Source: Shigella phage Sfk20
Sequence record: MW341595
Reading direction: 5' to 3' (one strand)
Length of the DNA: 64,000 nt
Position numbers and translations under genes: made by a program. Positions within the stretch are counted from its first letter, which is position 1. Every line of letters starts with the position of its first letter. Under the pieces are notes generated by a model. It saw only the letters and a program-made list of their open reading frames with translations, did not search any database and had not been told where the DNA came from. Of this stretch, positions 691 through 21,792 are shown piece after piece.

Positions 691-846
691 TCAACTATTT
701 TTAGAACCAATGTACGCGAATAATGATAAAATCGCTAATACGCCCTGAGCTGATGCCTGCAAAAATACTGAAGTTTCTCCAGTTATTACTGTTCCGACGC
801 ATAAAAAGAACCAGCAGAAAAAGGCTATACCGTGAACAAATTTCAT
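691..846 (-). CDS. ac-family small membrane protein, 51 aa (size matches T4 ac)
   Basis: Hand-translated MKFVHGIAFFCWFFLCVGTVITGETSVFLQASAQGVLAILSLFAYIGSKNS; ATG 844-846, stop 691-693; shares SVF-QA-AQG core with 522..680. Confidence 0.45.
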   Translation of the reverse strand: MKFVHGIAFFCWFFLCVGTVITGETSVFLQASAQGVLAILSLFAYIGSKNS

Positions 847-853
847 ATTTTCC

Positions 854-934
854 TCACTGGCGTCCGAAGACGCCTTTGGTTTTAAGATTGTTACGATAGA
901 ACTGCATCACATGTTCGTTATGGAAATTACTCAT
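854..934 (-). CDS. stp: Stp peptide, 26 aa (host anticodon-nuclease/restriction interplay)
   Basis: Hand-translated [26 protein letters not shown], matching the remembered T4 Stp; start overlaps ndd stop (TAATG). Confidence 0.8.
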
Positions 935-1389
935 TAATATGCCTGCAAAACAAATTTAAAGTTATCAGCCAACATACGGTTCATTTCTTCAAGCGTTTGA
1001 TACTCAGAATGATGATTACGAGTAAACGCTAAAGCTAACTGACCTTTTCCAAATCCCGTCGTCAGAGGTTTCATCTTAGAAGCAGGTAGATAAAATACCG
1101 TGTATGGAACATTGTTATTTACAATAGTACGCGCAAGCTGAGACCGACGTTGACGAATATGACTTAAAACTGCACTAAACCCTTGCTTAGAACGCTGATT
1201 ACCTACATAAAATCGTGCAGATACGCATGGACTACTAAATGGACCACCGAGTTTACTCACTAAAAAGTAAAATCCAGGTTTAGATAAAATATCTTTGTGC
1301 GGAGTTCCCAAAAACCATTCACCGCCCTTGATTGTACCAATAACAGTTGCGCCTGCATTATTCAAATCAGTAACAGTCATGTATTTCAT
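934..1389 (-). CDS. ndd: Ndd nucleoid disruption protein
   Basis: 151 aa, same length and map position (next to stp, before denB) as T4 Ndd; AGAGGA SD before ATG. Confidence 0.75.
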
Positions 1390-1420
1390 ATTAATTTCCT
1401 CTAATTATTTTCTACTCCAA

Positions 1421-1442
1421 GGCCGCATGAATACACACGGCC
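1421..1442 (-). terminator. GC stem-loop (ggccg...cggcc) between ndd.1-like ORF and ndd
   Basis: Inverted repeat ggccgcatgaatacacacggcc read from sequence. Confidence 0.35.
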
Positions 1443-1448
1443 GATAAA

Positions 1449-1664
1449 TTAATCGTCGCAGTCGACGCTCAATTCCCAGAACTCTTCTACAGTATAAGTT
1501 TCAGTATCATTTTCAATACAGAAACGTTCATTACTGTTGTTTGCTAAAGTAGCATTAACTGTCATTTTCTCGCTAGTGCTCTTAAGAGGTGAAATACGAA
1601 TTAACTGATCACCGCTATCCAAACAAAAAATTTCGCCAACTTTTACATCTTTAAAAATTTTCAT
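1449..1664 (-). CDS. hypothetical protein (ndd.1 position), 71 aa
   Basis: ORF track; ATG 1662-1664 with GAGGTGA SD. Confidence 0.5.
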   Translation of the reverse strand: MKIFKDVKVGEIFCLDSGDQLIRISPLKSTSEKMTVNATLANNSNERFCIENDTETYTVEEFWELSVDCDD

Positions 1665-2373: not shown

Positions 2374-2580
2374 TCAATAATCTGCTAAAAGATCGACGAT
2401 TGCATCACGAAGACACTTATTCGCAATACGTTTAAGAGCAATTTCAGTTTCTGGAGCATTTTGAATAATCATTGAATTCAATTCAGCCTCAGCAAACTGA
2501 AGTTCTTTAACTAATTCAGCTTTATATTTTCCTTGCCCTTTCTTAGCTTTTGCTCGTTTTAATTCAGCTGTAGTAAACAT
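2374..2580 (-). CDS. hypothetical protein, 68 aa
   Basis: ORF track 2374..2592 trimmed to ATG 2578-2580 (MFTTAELKRAKAKK...) preceded by GGAGaataaa leader. Confidence 0.55.
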   Translation of the reverse strand: MFTTAELKRAKAKKGQGKYKAELVKELQFAEAELNSMIIQNAPETEIALKRIANKCLRDAIVDLLADY

Positions 2581-2614
2581 TTTATTCTCCAAATCCGTAT
2601 CAGTTGATAGTTGT

Positions 2615-2643
2615 ATAGTACCACAGTCCTTGTGGTATGTAAA
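2615..2643 (-). promoter_or_regulatory. early (sigma70-type) promoter with conserved leader
   Basis: Reverse complement TTTACA-17 nt-TACTAT; followed by repeated leader cassette. Confidence 0.55.
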
Positions 2644-2662
2644 CTGTTTTGTGAAAAATTTT

Positions 2663-3220
2663 TTAAATGGAAAGATACCATCCGTTGTAGTTGCTTTTTC
2701 TTACAACCTTACGAAGGTCTTCTCTATCACCGATGAACTTCGGAGTGTACTGGATGACACCTGGATGAATTTCTTTAGTGTTGAATATAATTATACAGTC
2801 AGCGACCTGATGATTCAGAATGGGCCCTAGATTTATTCCAGAACCGTATGGATACTCTCCGCTGCATCCGGTTGTTACCGAAATCCAACGTGAGTCAGTT
2901 TGATGTGTCTTAACTTCTACACGAAGCCCGCAGTATCTTGGATGCGCCAATACATCCCATGCGTATGTATACGGGTCATTAACATCCTCTTGGCCTTTGT
3001 TAACATACCCGCTTAGCCAATCTGCTACAAAAAACTCTGCGTACACCGCGATACGACATCTTTCGATAACTTCTGCTTTATCCTGGTTCGGGTTTTGTTT
3101 TAAAGAGTATCTTGCTGTATCAGCAATTTTGACCTTCATTTCACTAGTCAAGTCACTGTTCGATAGGGTAAATGTCGGAATCTGAAATAGTCTCTGTAAA
3201 CCCGGATTCGTTTTCTGCAT
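2663..3220 (-). CDS. denB: endonuclease IV
   Basis: 185 aa, same length and map position (between ndd region and rIIB) as T4 DenB. Confidence 0.8.
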   Translation of the reverse strand: MQKTNPGLQRLFQIPTFTLSNSDLTSEMKVKIADTARYSLKQNPNQDKAEVIERCRIAVYAEFFVADWLSGYVNKGQEDVNDPYTYAWDVLAHPRYCGLRVEVKTHQTDSRWISVTTGCSGEYPYGSGINLGPILNHQVADCIIIFNTKEIHPGVIQYTPKFIGDREDLRKVVRKSNYNGWYLSI

Positions 3221-9291: not shown

Positions 9292-9663
9292 TCACTCAAA
9301 TTTAATGGCTTGAAGGAGAATAATAATTCTTAAACGGCTTCTTTCATCTTTAACTGTAAAAGAAAGAGGGTCGCCAGATTTCATAGTGATAGTGCATTCA
9401 AAATCAAAATCTTCAGAAACTTCTTCGAAGAAGTCAAATTCTTCATCATAAATTAGAACATTACTCTGAAAACTGTGAAGAATTTTTCCATCATTTCCAG
9501 ATGCTGTACTAATCATTGTAACATTATTACCTTTCATATCTTCAACGATAAATTCGCTTGTAGATATTACGGCATTAATAGAACCATTCCTATAAATAGA
9601 AGAAAGTAGATATTTCTTTTCTTCACCTTCGCGAACACGATATTTCTTACCGATTTTAAACAT
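9292..9663 (-). CDS. hypothetical protein (39.2 position), 123 aa
   Basis: ORF track trimmed to ATG 9661-9663. Confidence 0.5.
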   Translation of the reverse strand: MFKIGKKYRVREGEEKKYLLSSIYRNGSINAVISTSEFIVEDMKGNNVTMISTASGNDGKILHSFQSNVLIYDEEFDFFEEVSEDFDFECTITMKSGDPLSFTVKDERSRLRIIILLQAIKFE

Positions 9664-16232: not shown

Positions 16233-16835
16233 TTATAGATTAAATCCTTCAAAATCAAGAGTATAGATAGTGTATGTTGAATACTTTTTATACTCGTATC
16301 TATCCGCAATTCTAAATACGCTTCCAGCTGGTATCATTACTTCTTGTTCATCTGAAACTAATTCCATATTACGATAGCGATGGCTATCTGGAAACTTAAA
16401 ACTTGGACTATATTCTTTACAGCGTAGAGCTTTTATAGCATACTCCTGGAAATTAAACACCATAGGAGCTTTGAATTCAAAAATAACTTGCGTGTTGTAT
16501 TCTAATCCAGAAGCAAAATGTAGAGCTATATTTTTATCATATGAAGCTGATACTACTTTATCAAATGTAATAATATCAATTCCTTGATTTAACACCTGCT
16601 TAGTCTCAACTGGAACACCTCTCCAAAGAGGTTTATCGTTTGGTTCCAAACGAGATTTGATTATTTCATTTAACCAAGAATGATCGTCTGGCTTATTAGT
16701 AATACAATGAATTAAAAGTTCAATTTCGGATAAATTAAATCCTTCAGAAAGTAATTCTTCACGAATAGAAGCACGCACAGATGCATCCATTGATTTGATT
16801 TTAAAATCTTTTAATTGCATTGCTGAATATTTCAT
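16233..16835 (-). CDS. modA: ADP-ribosyltransferase ModA
   Basis: 200 aa, same length and position as T4 ModA; tandem with paralogue ModB. Confidence 0.75.
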   Translation of the reverse strand: MKYSAMQLKDFKIKSMDASVRASIREELLSEGFNLSEIELLIHCITNKPDDHSWLNEIIKSRLEPNDKPLWRGVPVETKQVLNQGIDIITFDKVVSASYDKNIALHFASGLEYNTQVIFEFKAPMVFNFQEYAIKALRCKEYSPSFKFPDSHRYRNMELVSDEQEVMIPAGSVFRIADRYEYKKYSTYTIYTLDFEGFNL

Positions 16836-17455
16836 TCAACTACCTCAATATCATACACTTTAAATGTTCCAAATGAATCGTGTAATTTTTCTTTTGAAAT
16901 AGAAGTTATTTTATACTTTCCAATTGGAATCATCCATTCTTGTTCACGCACAATCATCATTAAGTTATCAGTACGTTCTGAATCTAATCCATCAGTATCT
17001 TCATATGTATACTTAAACTCAGTATTAGGAGAAGAAAGTATAATATCACTGATATGGTCAGAATAATTAAAAGCTTTATCAGTTTTTAAGCGAAATATTA
17101 TTTCAGTGGAATATTCAACATAAGAAAAACCACATGCTGTGTGCAAACTAGTAGTAAATGAATCTACTCTGTTCGTTGAAAACACTTCTCCGACTTGTAA
17201 ATCTTTAATGAGTTCTTTTGTCGATTTTGATATACCACGATATAGCTGATAAGGCGATTTAGTTAAATGCTTTTTAACGATTTTATTCAACTGCCGGTGA
17301 AGAGCTTCATTCTTTTTGGCTTCCATACATTGCCAAAGAACTGACTGTTCAAAGTCAGTAAATTTTTCACAGACCTTTTTATACATATCATATTGAAAAT
17401 CGACACTTTCAGCTTTTATAGATAACTGTTCAACATCTGCAAGATTAATAATCAT
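16832..17455 (-). CDS. modB: ADP-ribosyltransferase ModB
   Basis: 207 aa, same length and position as T4 ModB; YRGIS...EQEWMIP pattern parallels ModA. Confidence 0.75.
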   Translation of the reverse strand: MIINLADVEQLSIKAESVDFQYDMYKKVCEKFTDFEQSVLWQCMEAKKNEALHRQLNKIVKKHLTKSPYQLYRGISKSTKELIKDLQVGEVFSTNRVDSFTTSLHTACGFSYVEYSTEIIFRLKTDKAFNYSDHISDIILSSPNTEFKYTYEDTDGLDSERTDNLMMIVREQEWMIPIGKYKITSISKEKLHDSFGTFKVYDIEVVE

Positions 17456-17481
17456 GATAGCCTCCGTATACTTCAGAAGCT

Positions 17482-17510
17482 ATCATATCATTGTTAGGAA
17501 GGAAAGTAAA
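17482..17510 (-). promoter_or_regulatory. early (sigma70-type) promoter upstream of modB
   Basis: Reverse complement TTTACT-17 nt-TATGAT. Confidence 0.55.
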
Positions 17511-17522
17511 CAACTTTTTGAA

Positions 17523-17705
17523 TTATTTTGCCCAGGGAGCCCAGGGCGGAGGGTCAAGATGGTATGAAGCTAGTTCTTCTAGAAGAGCATCTGGGGCTTC
17601 AATTCCATAATTCTGTAATACTATACGGTACTCTTTCTTATAATCACTAGAATCATTCTGGTTATTCGTAGAATGATTATCTTCTAACATCTCAAATAAA
17701 TCCAT
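17523..17705 (-). CDS. hypothetical protein, 60 aa
   Basis: ORF track. Confidence 0.4.
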   Translation of the reverse strand: MDLFEMLEDNHSTNNQNDSSDYKKEYRIVLQNYGIEAPDALLEELASYHLDPPPWAPWAK

Positions 17706-17713
17706 ATTAATTC

Positions 17714-18184
17714 CTAGCGATAAAAACCAAAATGACGATTAGCTTCAATAATCTTTCTTTCTTCTTCTGACATTCTCCAGCGTAGTCCAACATCAAAATG
17801 AGCCCAGACCATCTTAACAAATGCATTTATATCTTTAATATCTTCAATAATGAATGTTTTACTTTTATAAGGTTGACTAGCTAATTTAACTTTATCGTCT
17901 TCAAACAGGTCAAAAAGACCATATTCATGAGCTCTTTTATAGCCTTTAATAGTTAAAGCTTCAGAAGAAGAAAACGGTGAATCGGTATTCTGTAAAATAT
18001 CTTCAGTATGCTTTATAATTAGAATAACATTTTCTGGATATTTTCTTTCTTTTATATCTTTAATTAAAAAATCCGGATTTTCTGCTAAAGGAATAATTAA
18101 TGAGCAATTTTTATTAAGTGTATTTACTGATTTACCTTCTTTAGACATAAATTCTATTGAATATCGTTTTGCTACTTCAATCAT
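17714..18184 (-). CDS. hypothetical protein, 156 aa
   Basis: ORF track; ATG 18182-18184. Confidence 0.5.
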
Positions 18185-18329
18185 GTGATTTCCTTTTGCC
18201 TACTAATGGACCGTCAGGAATTTTGTTTTCCTGGATATATTTCTCATTTTCTTCCATCATTTTACTGCCAATTTTAAGAAGCAAATCCATTGCTTCATTT
18301 GCTTTAGCTTTAGCCTCTTCTAACGTCAT
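18177..18329 (-). CDS. small hypothetical protein, 50 aa
   Basis: Hand-translated [50 protein letters not shown]; overlaps downstream start. Confidence 0.35.
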
Positions 18330-18337
18330 ATCTCTGT

Positions 18338-18541
18338 TCACGATTTATCCCCATAGATGTCTCTCATCAATTTAAGCGCTGAGCGTTCTAATTTCTTTTC
18401 TTTCTCGGCACTAATCATTGATTTCATCCATTCTTCTGATTCATTCTGCATTTCTTTATTTGCTTGTTCAACCCAACCATCATCAATATACATTGAGTTT
18501 GGTCTATTGAACCATTCAAGCATTTTCTTCAGAACTTTCAT
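18338..18541 (-). CDS. hypothetical protein, 67 aa
   Basis: ORF track. Confidence 0.45.
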
Positions 18542-19013
18542 TTGTTTTACCTAAAATAACAGTAGGAGCATCATCAAATTCATGAATTTTTAGCAAATTT
18601 GGATGTAAACTATTCCATACAGAAGAAATAAAGTATGATAAAGCATCTTCACTTGCAATTATAAATTTATTTCCTTTATCTATTTTCCAACTATATACTG
18701 AATCATACGAATAAAAAGATAAAGGTTTATCATTATATTGTTCTGCGCTAACATTAATGTATTCTGATTTAGTAAATGCTTCAATTGCTCTAAATGGAAT
18801 ATTTGGTACAGTTTCAATAATACCAATCTTTTTAAGTTTTATTTCAGCATCTTCTGGAACTGGCATTGAAACGAAATTTTCTACGAGATACATTGGGTCA
18901 CAATAACCCTTATCAATCATTACTGCTACGGTAATTGGAACGTCTTTAGCAAACGACAAACTATTACTGCTAATATACATTTCAAACAAAATCGCTTCCA
19001 TAATTTTCCTCAA
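18516..19013 (-). CDS. hypothetical protein, 165 aa
   Basis: ORF track. Confidence 0.5.
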
Positions 19014-19904: not shown

Positions 19905-19934
19905 GTAATTCTCCTTTTATTTAAATTACATGAC

Positions 19935-19942
19935 TATTTATA
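19935..19942 (-). promoter_or_regulatory. late promoter TATAAATA upstream of soc
   Basis: Exact TATAAATA on minus strand about 30 nt upstream of soc ATG. Confidence 0.65.
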
Positions 19943-19976
19943 ATAAATTCTCACAGCTTTTAAGCCGTCGTTTATA

Positions 19977-20495
19977 TTAATAACCTCGGTCTTGACGAGC
20001 GAAGTTTTCAGCATTTTTCAGATAATAAAGTTTAAAGATTTCTTCAGCCGTAAGACCGAGACCTTGGAACATGTTCAGAACGAAATGAAGAATATCAATC
20101 ATTTCGAATTTAATTTCCAACTGGTCTTGTGGAGATAAGTCAGTAATCAGAGTTTCACGACGTTCACCGTGTTGCGACTTCCAAGGCTTCCATACAGCAG
20201 ATGCATCTTTTTCGCCATTGCTCATACCACCAAGAGAAGTCAGAAGTTCGCGGAATTCATCATCAATATAATCTTTCTGATTACGCAGCCAATCAACAAC
20301 TTCACCTGCAGTAGCCAAATCATCAGGATGACGGTTATATTCAGGTTTATCTTTAGCTAAACGAACCTGCAGAGATTTCTGCATATCAAGCATAACTTGC
20401 AACGGATCTTTTTCATCACCGAGAATATCCCAGTATTCATTTTGAGCTTTATCAGCGCCTTCAATCAGTTGACTACATTCATTAAAGTAAGCCAT
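19977..20495 (-). CDS. 56: dCTP pyrophosphatase gp56 (MazG-like)
   Basis: ORF track 19977..20588 trimmed to ATG 20493-20495 (MAYFNECSQLIEGADKAQNEYWDILG...), 171 to 172 aa as T4 gp56; AAGGAA SD. Confidence 0.8.
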   Translation of the reverse strand: MAYFNECSQLIEGADKAQNEYWDILGDEKDPLQVMLDMQKSLQVRLAKDKPEYNRHPDDLATAGEVVDWLRNQKDYIDDEFRELLTSLGGMSNGEKDASAVWKPWKSQHGERRETLITDLSPQDQLEIKFEMIDILHFVLNMFQGLGLTAEEIFKLYYLKNAENFARQDRGY

Positions 20496-20529
20496 TATTT
20501 TTCCTTTCAATTCATGGGTTAGTAGATTA

Positions 20530-20553
20530 ATTATACAATAAATATATAAAGCA
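20530..20553 (-). promoter_or_regulatory. candidate MotA-dependent middle promoter upstream of 56
   Basis: Reverse complement TGCTTTA-11 nt-TATAAT. Confidence 0.5.
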
Positions 20554-20566
20554 ATAAGGAGGACAT

Positions 20567-20767
20567 ATGGTACAAAAATTAATGGCACTTGTTAATGCCA
20601 TAAAAGGTAATAAAAAACGTATAGCTTTTACTATTTCTGCTATGGTAGGAATTTTACTCTGGAATTTTGTTTTATCACCAATTGCTATTGCTCATGGTGT
20701 TAATATTCCAGTAATTACTCTTGATACATTCGTAGATTTAGCATTTGCTTTGGTTGGGTTAATTTAA
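20567..20767 (+). CDS. small membrane protein, 66 aa, plus strand
   Basis: ORF track; AAGGAGGA 5 nt before ATG; two hydrophobic segments; convergent with gene 61, stop codons overlap. Confidence 0.4.
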   Translation: MVQKLMALVNAIKGNKKRIAFTISAMVGILLWNFVLSPIAIAHGVNIPVITLDTFVDLAFALVGLI

Positions 20768-21792
20768 ATCTTAGCATATTTAGATAGCCGCATTTTAGCC
20801 ATCAACCCTTGGGCAATATTATTTTTCATATATTCCATAATTTGTTCAGGGGTTGCACCTTCCTTTCTAATCATATCATTAACATCTTTTGATTTCCAGG
20901 GAGATTTATCCCAAAACATAACCCTTTCTCCTGCATCAACTAATTTAGTCATTCGTTTAATAGTGTCAGGGTGACGAGGTTCATTATCTAAAACCCACAC
21001 ACGTCTATCTTTAAATGGAACAATTTCTAGGTCTAATTGACCACCCGTAATAGCTATACCATTTTCAATAAAAAGTGAATCTATAGGTCCTTCTAGAACA
21101 TATACATCACCATCTTTGACTCGTTCAACTCCATAGATTTTTGTTGCCTCAGGATAAGCTTTGATGGTGATATATTTTTGAGGAGCATCTTTCTTTAATG
21201 CACGTCCTTGAAAAGACTCGGCTTTTCCGTTAGCGTTATAAATTGGAATAACAAGACGAGGCTCGGGCATTTCCTTTTTATATGTTCCTGGCGCTATACT
21301 ATTAACTAATTTAGGCCATTCGGTTGTAAACCAAAGATATTTCCATTTATTCTTTGGAATACAACGAGCTTTTACATATTTTATAATTGGATGGTCTTCC
21401 GCCAGTTTATCTAATCTAATGCATGACGGAAGAGATTTAATTATTTTCTTCTCAGGTTGTTTAGGAAGTTCTTTAGGTTTTTCTACTGGACGACTTTTAC
21501 CTTTTTCTTTTCTTATTTCAAAGATATACTCACGATATAAATCAGGTTCAAACTCCTTTAAATATATTCCAATTGGTGCATGATAGTTACAGTTATAACA
21601 ATGAATATTTCCTTCATTATTATCGCCATAATACCATCCACGGGCTTTATTTTGATCGGTTTTTGAATCTCCACAAACAGGGCATCTAAACCGTAATTTA
21701 AAAGTTGAACTATTATTTACTTGTGCGAATTTAGGTAAATGAGCCAATGCACGGTATGCAAACTCATTATCAATCCAAGGTATTGATGACAT
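20764..21792 (-). CDS. 61: DNA primase gp61
   Basis: 342 aa as T4 gp61; zinc-binding CPVCGDS...CYNC and Toprim-like region. Confidence 0.95.
   Translation of the reverse strand: MSSIPWIDNEFAYRALAHLPKFAQVNNSSTFKLRFRCPVCGDSKTDQNKARGWYYGDNNEGNIHCYNCNYHAPIGIYLKEFEPDLYREYIFEIRKEKGKSRPVEKPKELPKQPEKKIIKSLPSCIRLDKLAEDHPIIKYVKARCIPKNKWKYLWFTTEWPKLVNSIAPGTYKKEMPEPRLVIPIYNANGKAESFQGRALKKDAPQKYITIKAYPEATKIYGVERVKDGDVYVLEGPIDSLFIENGIAITGGQLDLEIVPFKDRRVWVLDNEPRHPDTIKRMTKLVDAGERVMFWDKSPWKSKDVNDMIRKEGATPEQIMEYMKNNIAQGLMAKMRLSKYAKI

Follow-up and report, generated by a model that had tools for sequence, protein, structure and literature searches.

The stretch of DNA analysed here (the window) comprises 64,000 nucleotides of Shigella phage Sfk20 (MW341595) and is that of a T4-like member of the genus Tequatrovirus. 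Of the early region it contains the part that begins near gene 52 and rIIB, continues with rIIA, 39, 56, 61, 41 and 43, and ends at about regB. The genome of Escherichia phage EC121 is collinear with the whole window at 92–98% identity, the exceptions being two short off-diagonal repeats. A 2-kb stretch around the junction of genes 56 and 61 has matches in 729 phage records, nearly all of them from T4-like coliphages, with EC121 as the best match (99.0%), and the 272-bp junction itself (20496–20767) is 100% identical in Shigella phage ESh16.

The junction is flanked by two minus-strand genes, which were located from the list of open reading frames and whose orthologues are annotated as gp56 and gp61 in T4, T6 and EC121. 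Gene 56, encoding a dCTP/dUTP pyrophosphatase of 172 residues, occupies positions 19977–20495, with its ATG at 20495–20493 and a Shine-Dalgarno sequence AAGGA that is the complement of 20502–20506; a GTG-started ORF of 203 residues at the same place is a mere upstream extension of gene 56. Gene 61, encoding the DNA primase (342 residues), occupies 20764–21792, with its stop codon at 20764–20766. The two genes are 268 bp apart, and the gap of about 270 bp in the original prediction, from a gp56 start at 20495 to a gp61 stop from 20764, is thereby confirmed. Between them, on the plus strand, lies an ATG-started ORF of 66 residues (20567–20767), to which we refer as dam.1, its name in the annotation of T6. 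As had been predicted, it converges on gene 61 with overlapping stop codons, which share the palindrome TTAA at 20764–20767. It is preceded by the Shine-Dalgarno sequence AAGGAGG (20556–20562, plus strand), separated from the ATG by 4 nt (ACAT), or by 3 nt when counted from AAGGAGGA; the strong Shine-Dalgarno sequence claimed for this ORF is therefore present, but its distance to the ATG had been given as 5 nt. The GGAG(G) core is found at the same site in all 11 sequences examined. The further claim that this is the sole convincing plus-strand ORF in the window agrees with the annotation of EC121, in which the orthologue gp030 is the sole annotated plus-strand CDS in the first ~75 kb.

The gap also contains the candidate MotA-box middle promoter that had been proposed for gene 56. 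This predicted MotA-dependent promoter (20530–20556, minus strand) is composed of the box TATTGCTTTA (20556..20547), an 11-nt spacer and TATAAT (20535..20530), and both sequence and spacing fit the consensus (a/t)(a/t)(a/t)TGCTTtA at 12±1 bp from TAtaaT (PMC2988021). The region aligns with the 56-dam intergenic region of T4, and the promoter is the orthologue of T4 P(M)16.53, an annotated mot-box whose transcript is annotated in T4 as the oriA primer. An extended −10 element (TGn) is not claimed, as the G directly abuts TATAAT. Reading out of the MotA box (...AAGCAAT), the window goes directly to AAGGAGG and the ATG of dam.1.

In T4 the annotated gene order is 56 (16270–16785), dam (16846–17625) and 61 (17935–18963), so that the position of dam was given correctly in the original prediction, which had noted its absence from the Sfk20 junction. 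This absence was borne out by a tblastn search with T4 Dam, in which no homologue was identified in the 64-kb window (best E = 0.77). A whole-genome search, which had been suggested as a check, was performed on the complete genome of the relative EC121 with both T4 Dam and E. coli Dam as queries, and likewise gave no homologue (best E values 0.69–1.5). A 2010 review of T4-related genomes makes no mention of dam.

The suggested comparison of the junction across phages separated two alleles. Of 503 records matching the 272-bp junction, 334 match it essentially from end to end and are dam-less like Sfk20, T6 among them. In the remaining ~169 records, including T4, which carries dam, the match begins at query position 61, i.e. 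at the start of the dam.1 Shine-Dalgarno sequence. The dam-less junction is thus the majority state in Tequatrovirus, with about two thirds of the records. Dam proteins at least 90% identical to that of T4 were found in 182 phage records, approximately the number with a T4-type junction, which suggests that the dam-less phages have no dam gene elsewhere either. As the Sfk20 sequence analysed covers 64 kb, the absence of dam from its whole genome is probable, by analogy with these relatives. Phages of the genera Mosigvirus, Gaprivervirus and Dhakavirus also have no dam at the 56-61 site. Together with the many dam-less records this indicates that the empty site is widespread and probably ancestral, and that dam was probably inserted in part of the genus Tequatrovirus.

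The dam gene is carried by an optional cassette, the site of which is flanked by dam.1 and the middle promoter of gene 56. T2 and most other dam-positive Tequatroviruses have a cassette composed of an ORF of 186 residues and dam, and that of T4 is composed of dam and a remnant of that ORF. The cassettes of T4 and T2 share this locus, and in T4 the limits are the gene 56 middle promoter on one side and the Shine-Dalgarno sequence of dam.1 on the other. In Sfk20, as in T6, EC121 and most of the genus, the cassette was either never acquired or lost, and Dam is probably not made. The explanation that best accounts for the data, and in which we place good confidence, is that the Sfk20 junction represents the 'empty' allele of a variable site, with the small conserved gene dam.1 beside it.

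The same dam.1 ORF is found in T4, intact and of identical length (66 residues), between dam and gene 61 (NC_000866, 17738–17938). The T4 protein differs from that of Sfk20 by four conservative amino-acid substitutions, and the gene has its own AAAGGAGG. Since T4 has this intact ORF beside dam, dam.1 is no substitute for dam. The ORF is not annotated in the reference T4 records NC_000866 (RefSeq) and AF158101 (GenBank). In other genomes it has been annotated under various labels, i.e. 'dam.1' in T6, ORF033w in VR7 ('similar to RB32 ORF030w') and 'hypothetical protein' in hundreds of further records, and it is included in PHROGs as phrog_2024, so that dam.1 is a gene that was already known. The phrog_2024 profile is matched over its full length (hmmscan E = 5.4e-31, residues 2–66 against profile positions 1–65 of 65), and T6 dam.1, RB32 ORF030w, VR7 ORF033w and phrog_2024 show no material difference from the Sfk20 gene. 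One peculiarity of T6 is an ATT where Sfk20 has its first ATG, with the Shine-Dalgarno sequence kept; expression of T6 dam.1 may therefore be reduced, or may begin at M6.

A tblastn search with the dam.1 protein gave matches in 703 phage records, 502 of them at 80% identity or more and 201 below 60% (43–54% amino-acid identity). In the latter group blastn shows almost no similarity at the DNA level, and yet every low-identity homologue inspected is encoded directly 3' of gene 61 on the opposite strand. Within Tequatrovirus the protein is 92–100% identical, and the ORF is identical in ESh16 and EC121. The convergent position beside gene 61 is kept in T4, T6, ESh16, Mosigvirus, Gaprivervirus, Dhakavirus, Moonvirus, Jiaodavirus and two metagenomic contigs, the latter representing lineages with 68% and 52% identity and the same synteny. 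In Gaprivervirus a tandem duplicate of dam.1 is present with an intact reading frame. When this divergent second copy was used as query, the family could be extended to Dhakavirus JS98, in which the gene is unannotated, and weak matches sharing the conserved motif were found at the same position in Moonvirus CF1 (E = 0.06) and Jiaodavirus PKO111 (E = 1). All homologues are 63–66 residues long.

Several lines of evidence indicate that this ORF is translated. Most pairs of Tequatrovirus dam.1 sequences have a dN/dS of 0.12–0.3, and the variable sites are distributed over codon positions 1, 2 and 3 as 8, 2 and 14. The ratio of synonymous to nonsynonymous changes is 15:10 in the dam.1 frame, compared to 3–11:13–21 in the other five frames. 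Residues W32, N33, P38, A40, G44 and P48 are shared by at least 80% of 10 aligned divergent homologues; the family is characterized by the motif W-N-x4-P-x-A-x3-G-x3-P with a basic cluster ahead of it, and an acidic residue at position 53 is also kept. A Shine-Dalgarno sequence followed by ATG was found in 10 of the 11 sequences examined, T6 (ATT) being the exception. From these sequence comparisons we conclude that dam.1 is a genuine protein-coding gene under purifying selection, in the same place and orientation in at least six genera of the Tevenvirinae.

The family is a narrow one. Searches of Pfam and NCBIfam with the 66-residue protein gave no match, and a profile search against 1.84 billion representative proteins gave only seven hits. 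Apart from members of the family and fragments, these included a single weak match (E = 1.6e-4), to the repeats of a protein of 1255 residues, which was taken as spurious. Using Foldseek against BFVD, only members of the family itself and two proteins of 63 residues were found, one from phage CIP9 and the other unnamed. In the PDB, neither Foldseek nor a sequence search gave anything usable; a structural hit to NqrE (E = 0.048) appears to reflect hydrophobic composition.

The dam.1 protein is hydrophobic, with a GRAVY value (Kyte-Doolittle) of 1.25. The two hydrophobic segments of the original prediction are both visible in the Kyte-Doolittle profile, residues 19–42 having a mean of ~1.9 and residues 47–66, which contain D53 and D57, a mean of 1.2–1.95. 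AlphaFold2, run with a shallow alignment of 9 sequences, predicts helices at residues 2–12, 16–42 and 52–65 (mean pLDDT 77), i.e. a basic N-terminal helix, a transmembrane helix, a short loop and a C-terminal helix. The second segment is probably not a transmembrane span, as only 11–15 residues follow the conserved acidic residue in four homologues (the second copy of MN01, JS98, CF1 and PKO111). The basic residues K13, K16, K17 and R18 precede the hydrophobic core, and the acidic residues D53 and D57 follow it. Because of the short C-terminal segment in these four homologues and this charge distribution, a single-pass topology is favoured over a two-span hairpin, and dam.1 is probably a small N-in single-pass inner-membrane protein with a short hydrophobic periplasmic tail. 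In this model K13–R18 would remain in the cytoplasm, residues ~19–42 would span the inner membrane, and the last ~24 residues, with the conserved motif G-x3-P-x-V-x-[LM]-[DE], would be located at the periplasmic face.

The orientation of dam.1 gives an indication of when it may be expressed. In T4 the early and middle transcripts all run in one direction, and the use of either strand is confined to late transcripts (PMC2988020). As early and middle transcription in T4 is all on the other strand, a plus-strand gene at this locus would have to be late, and dam.1 is probably a late gene. A late-promoter-like box AATAAATA is present on the plus strand at 20537–20544. This box precedes the ATG by 22 nt and falls within the spacer of the gene 56 middle promoter on the other strand. 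It is the A(−13) variant of TATAAATA, a variant found in 9 of the 50 listed T4 late promoters (PMC2988020). With a TATAAATA-type −10 box close upstream, and no −35 element being needed, dam.1 has the arrangement of a late gp55-dependent unit.

The ATAAATA core of this box is rare in the window, with 7 occurrences on both strands compared to 39.6±5.8 in shuffled sequences (~5.6-fold depleted). Four of the seven are located 22–30 nt upstream of a Shine-Dalgarno sequence and start codon on the same strand, and belong to soc, dam.1, an ORF of 121 residues and an ORF of 70 residues. The soc box lies at 19935–19942 on the minus strand, and a late promoter of soc is annotated in T4 records. According to the coordinates of EC121, the ORFs of 121 and 70 residues are the counterparts of gene 49 and of the ORF upstream of rI, and both regions have late promoters in T4. 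A close parallel to dam.1 is T4 soc, also a short gene among early and middle genes, with a TATAAATA-type box 22–30 nt before the ATG and a strong Shine-Dalgarno sequence. The two genes differ in orientation, soc sharing the strand of its neighbours and dam.1 being opposed to them, and in product, which is a capsid decoration protein for soc and a hydrophobic protein for dam.1; a further difference is the A(−13) promoter variant of dam.1.

Of 11 sequences examined, 9 have NATAAATA at 16–22 nt before the dam.1 ATG, an occurrence to which shuffling assigns a probability of 2–5% in each sequence; these probabilities are not independent, since the sequences are related by descent. A perfect TATAAATA is present in no lineage, and Moonvirus CF1 and the P0028 lineage have looser matches only. 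The source of the motif differs between the two alleles of the junction: in the dam-less allele it is provided by the spacer of the gene 56 middle promoter, and in T4 by the right end of the dam cassette. These observations support a conserved module of putative late promoter, Shine-Dalgarno sequence and ORF. In Sfk20, transcription from the gp55-type box AATAAATA would start near 20550 and give a leader of ~17 nt, with translation from AAGGAGG. We also considered that a late box in the spacer of the gene 56 promoter might shut off oriA priming. As a mechanism of general validity this was rejected, since oriA is defined in T4, and there the two promoters lie ~0.9 kb apart, with the dam cassette between them.

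Class II holins and pinholins, such as S68/S71 of phage 21, are hydrophobic late proteins of about 65–70 residues. The dam.1 protein resembles them in size, in hydrophobicity, in its predicted late expression and, in Tequatrovirus, in having two in-frame Met codons, so that it might be regarded as a holin, pinholin or antiholin of the two-transmembrane class II type with a dual start at M1 and M6. This reading is unlikely, although it survives better than the other alternatives. In its favour are the small size, the hydrophobicity and the late-type promoter, the title 'Holin' of one UniRef entry for a 63-residue member, and the Tequatrovirus start MVQKLM, with a lysine between the two Met codons. 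This title is unreviewed and stands alone beside about 150 entries named 'hypothetical protein', and neither Pfam nor NCBIfam gave a holin match. A dual-start motif was rejected because M6 is kept only in Tequatrovirus and one metagenomic lineage, being absent in Mosigvirus, Gaprivervirus, Dhakavirus, Moonvirus and Jiaodavirus. The protein also lacks the charged C-terminal tail of class II holins, as it ends in ...FALVGLI with nothing charged after D57, and its second hydrophobic segment, with 11–15 residues in four homologues of other genera, is probably too short there. Finally, dam.1 lies outside the lysis cassette: its neighbours are genes 56 and 61 and no lysis gene adjoins it, while a T-type holin and spanins are encoded elsewhere (gp153 and gp181/182 in EC121), as is the lysozyme. 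By these sequence features dam.1 does not qualify as a class II holin.

The predicted inner-membrane protein may instead contact another membrane protein through its conserved WN..P.A...G...P face and thereby tune an event at the envelope late in infection, for example the timing or the inhibition of lysis, a speculative proposal to which we would give something like a one-in-several chance. Slightly more doubtful still is the wider proposal that dam.1 is an overlooked T4 gene for a late inner-membrane protein with a specific envelope role in at least six genera of the Tevenvirinae, for example in lysis timing or inhibition, or in late superinfection exclusion.

A role at the RNA level has also been considered, in which late plus-strand transcription runs antisense into gene 61 and silences the primase mRNA late in infection, the peptide being secondary. 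The convergent arrangement with overlapping stop codons would allow this, a search of the following 500 bp revealed no terminator on the plus strand, and some sites of T4 are known to be transcribed on both strands, though not at the same time (PMC2988020). Against it, the protein sequence itself is under selection, and in Jiaodavirus PKO111 and the P0028 lineage an inverted repeat, a possible terminator, separates the ORF from gene 61, so that read-through into gene 61 may not be conserved. As the main role of the locus, antisense silencing is improbable, somewhat more so than a holin.

The ORF could further be regarded as untranslated, its 200 bp being kept for signals on the minus strand, either those that end or terminate the gene 61 transcript or promoter-proximal elements, with an open frame that is incidental. 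A pattern scan identified a terminator-like hairpin on the minus strand at 20582–20601, with the structure ATGGCATT-AACA-AGTGCCAT followed by the T-run TAATTTTTGT. It is located within codons 6–12 of dam.1, follows the stop codon of gene 61 at a distance of 163 nt, and may terminate the gene 61 transcript. The scan gave 2 such sites in 1 kb, compared to 0.7 expected. The lack of annotation in RefSeq T4 also fits an incidental frame, as does the literature: our searches, which extended to T4 start-mapping work, gave no evidence for dam.1 from transcripts, ribosome profiling or proteomics in any phage. The pattern of substitution points the other way, with the third-position bias, the low dN/dS and the best synonymous to nonsynonymous ratio of the six frames in the frame of dam.1. 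Moreover, amino-acid similarity of 43–54% persists where blastn finds almost no DNA similarity, and the Shine-Dalgarno sequence with ATG (in 10 of 11 sequences) and the length of 63–66 residues are maintained. Inspection by eye revealed no evident hairpin in the Mosigvirus and Gaprivervirus sequences, and an Rfam scan of 20200–21000 gave chance-level matches to eukaryotic snoRNAs and miRNAs only. We therefore consider an untranslated ORF very unlikely. That the dam-less junction is a recent deletion in Sfk20 or an assembly artefact, and not a standing allele, is the least probable of all, almost negligibly so: the breakpoints are in AT-rich sequence and short similar stretches (ATTAATT) occur at both ends of the T4 cassette, but the identical junction is found in 334 independent records, T6 included, the site is also dam-less in Mosigvirus, Gaprivervirus and Dhakavirus, and a search of the 71-bp spacer detected no remnant of dam.

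Taking dam.1 as a translated gene, the reference annotation of T4 lacks a gene on which purifying selection acts and which has been conserved in at least six genera. Studies of expression or of the proteome based on this annotation are blind to dam.1, as both NC_000866 and AF158101 omit it. Its short length makes it a tractable candidate for knockout or tagging, in a phage for which lysis inhibition, exclusion and the late biology of the membrane have otherwise been mapped well. Whether dam itself is present or absent is a common polymorphism in Tequatrovirus, of little value for discovery; in the dam-less state, adenine methylation of GATC sites in the phage DNA would rest on the host alone.

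Insertions recur in the interval that separates gene 56 from dam.1. The window, T6 and EC121 have no insert there, and in T4 the interval is occupied by dam (2122..2901 of L001, the T4 segment). In phage Killian the middle promoter is separated from gene 56 by an HNH endonuclease gene (L021, the Killian stretch, 899..1549). The insert at the 56-dam.1 gap of the Jiaodavirus PKO111 (L025 1391..4102) encodes a 495-residue GIY-YIG-domain protein that carries an NPPF motif, and also holds a 'DNA methyltransferase' fragment and two further ORFs. The soc-56 spacer is a second variable site adjoining gene 56. It measures only 72 bp in the window (19905..19976); T4 carries the homing endonuclease gene segF at this position and T6 two small ORFs, T6ORF029 and soc.2.

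In most dam-positive Tequatroviruses (about 155 records, including T2), dam is preceded by an ORF of 186 residues, the stop codon of which overlaps the dam start codon (ATGA); an example is found on the minus strand of L011, a dam-positive Tequatrovirus stretch, at 841..1401. In this ORF FDIVIS...EIK forms a PD-(D/E)XK-like motif, and there is a weak, sub-threshold Pfam match (E = 0.0045; 16.8 bits, cutoff 23) to DpnII, a GATC-specific restriction enzyme; a sequence search of the PDB with the ORF gave no match. In T4 and a few other phages the ORF is reduced to its last 28 or so codons (in T4, L001 2915..2977, i.e. NC_000866 ~17639-17701, minus strand). The position of this ORF beside dam, its motif and DpnII similarity, and the short stretch of codons kept in T4 together suggest that T4 dam may be what is left of a restriction-modification-like cassette of two genes. 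GATC is strongly under-represented both in the window (75 observed, 201 expected) and in the EC121 genome, which lacks dam (199 observed, 552 expected), the two sequences to which these counts apply.

The late-promoter core ATAAATA is also under-represented in the window, an early region, by about 5.6-fold (7 sites, about 40 expected). The soc late-promoter box (19935-19942) lies inside the soc-56 spacer. For three plus-strand sites, at 9592, 49976 and 63583, no ORF with a ribosome-binding site was found within 80 nt downstream; they could be antisense late promoters or could match by chance.

Within the 5' portion of dam.1, the minus strand has a terminator-like hairpin and, directly after it, a T-run (20582..20601); this sequence is identical in T4. 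The hairpin could end the gene 61 transcript ahead of the gene 56 middle promoter. In T6 dam.1, ATT is found at the position of the first ATG (L002, the T6 stretch, 2572..2574), with the Shine-Dalgarno sequence retained. The T6 annotation begins at M6, a start that lacks its own ribosome-binding site, and gives a protein of 61 residues; a family member of the same length is likewise annotated in phage F26. The T6 gene would either be initiated at AUU or be weakly expressed. Gaprivervirus genomes carry two dam.1 paralogues in tandem (2495..2692 and 2701..2901 in L006; second copy at 2701..~2900 in L005). The second copy of VR7 is unannotated, with a 1-nt indel difference near the 3' end. In Dhakavirus JS98 the gene is present solely as the second-type copy (L024 1501..1698), which is also unannotated.
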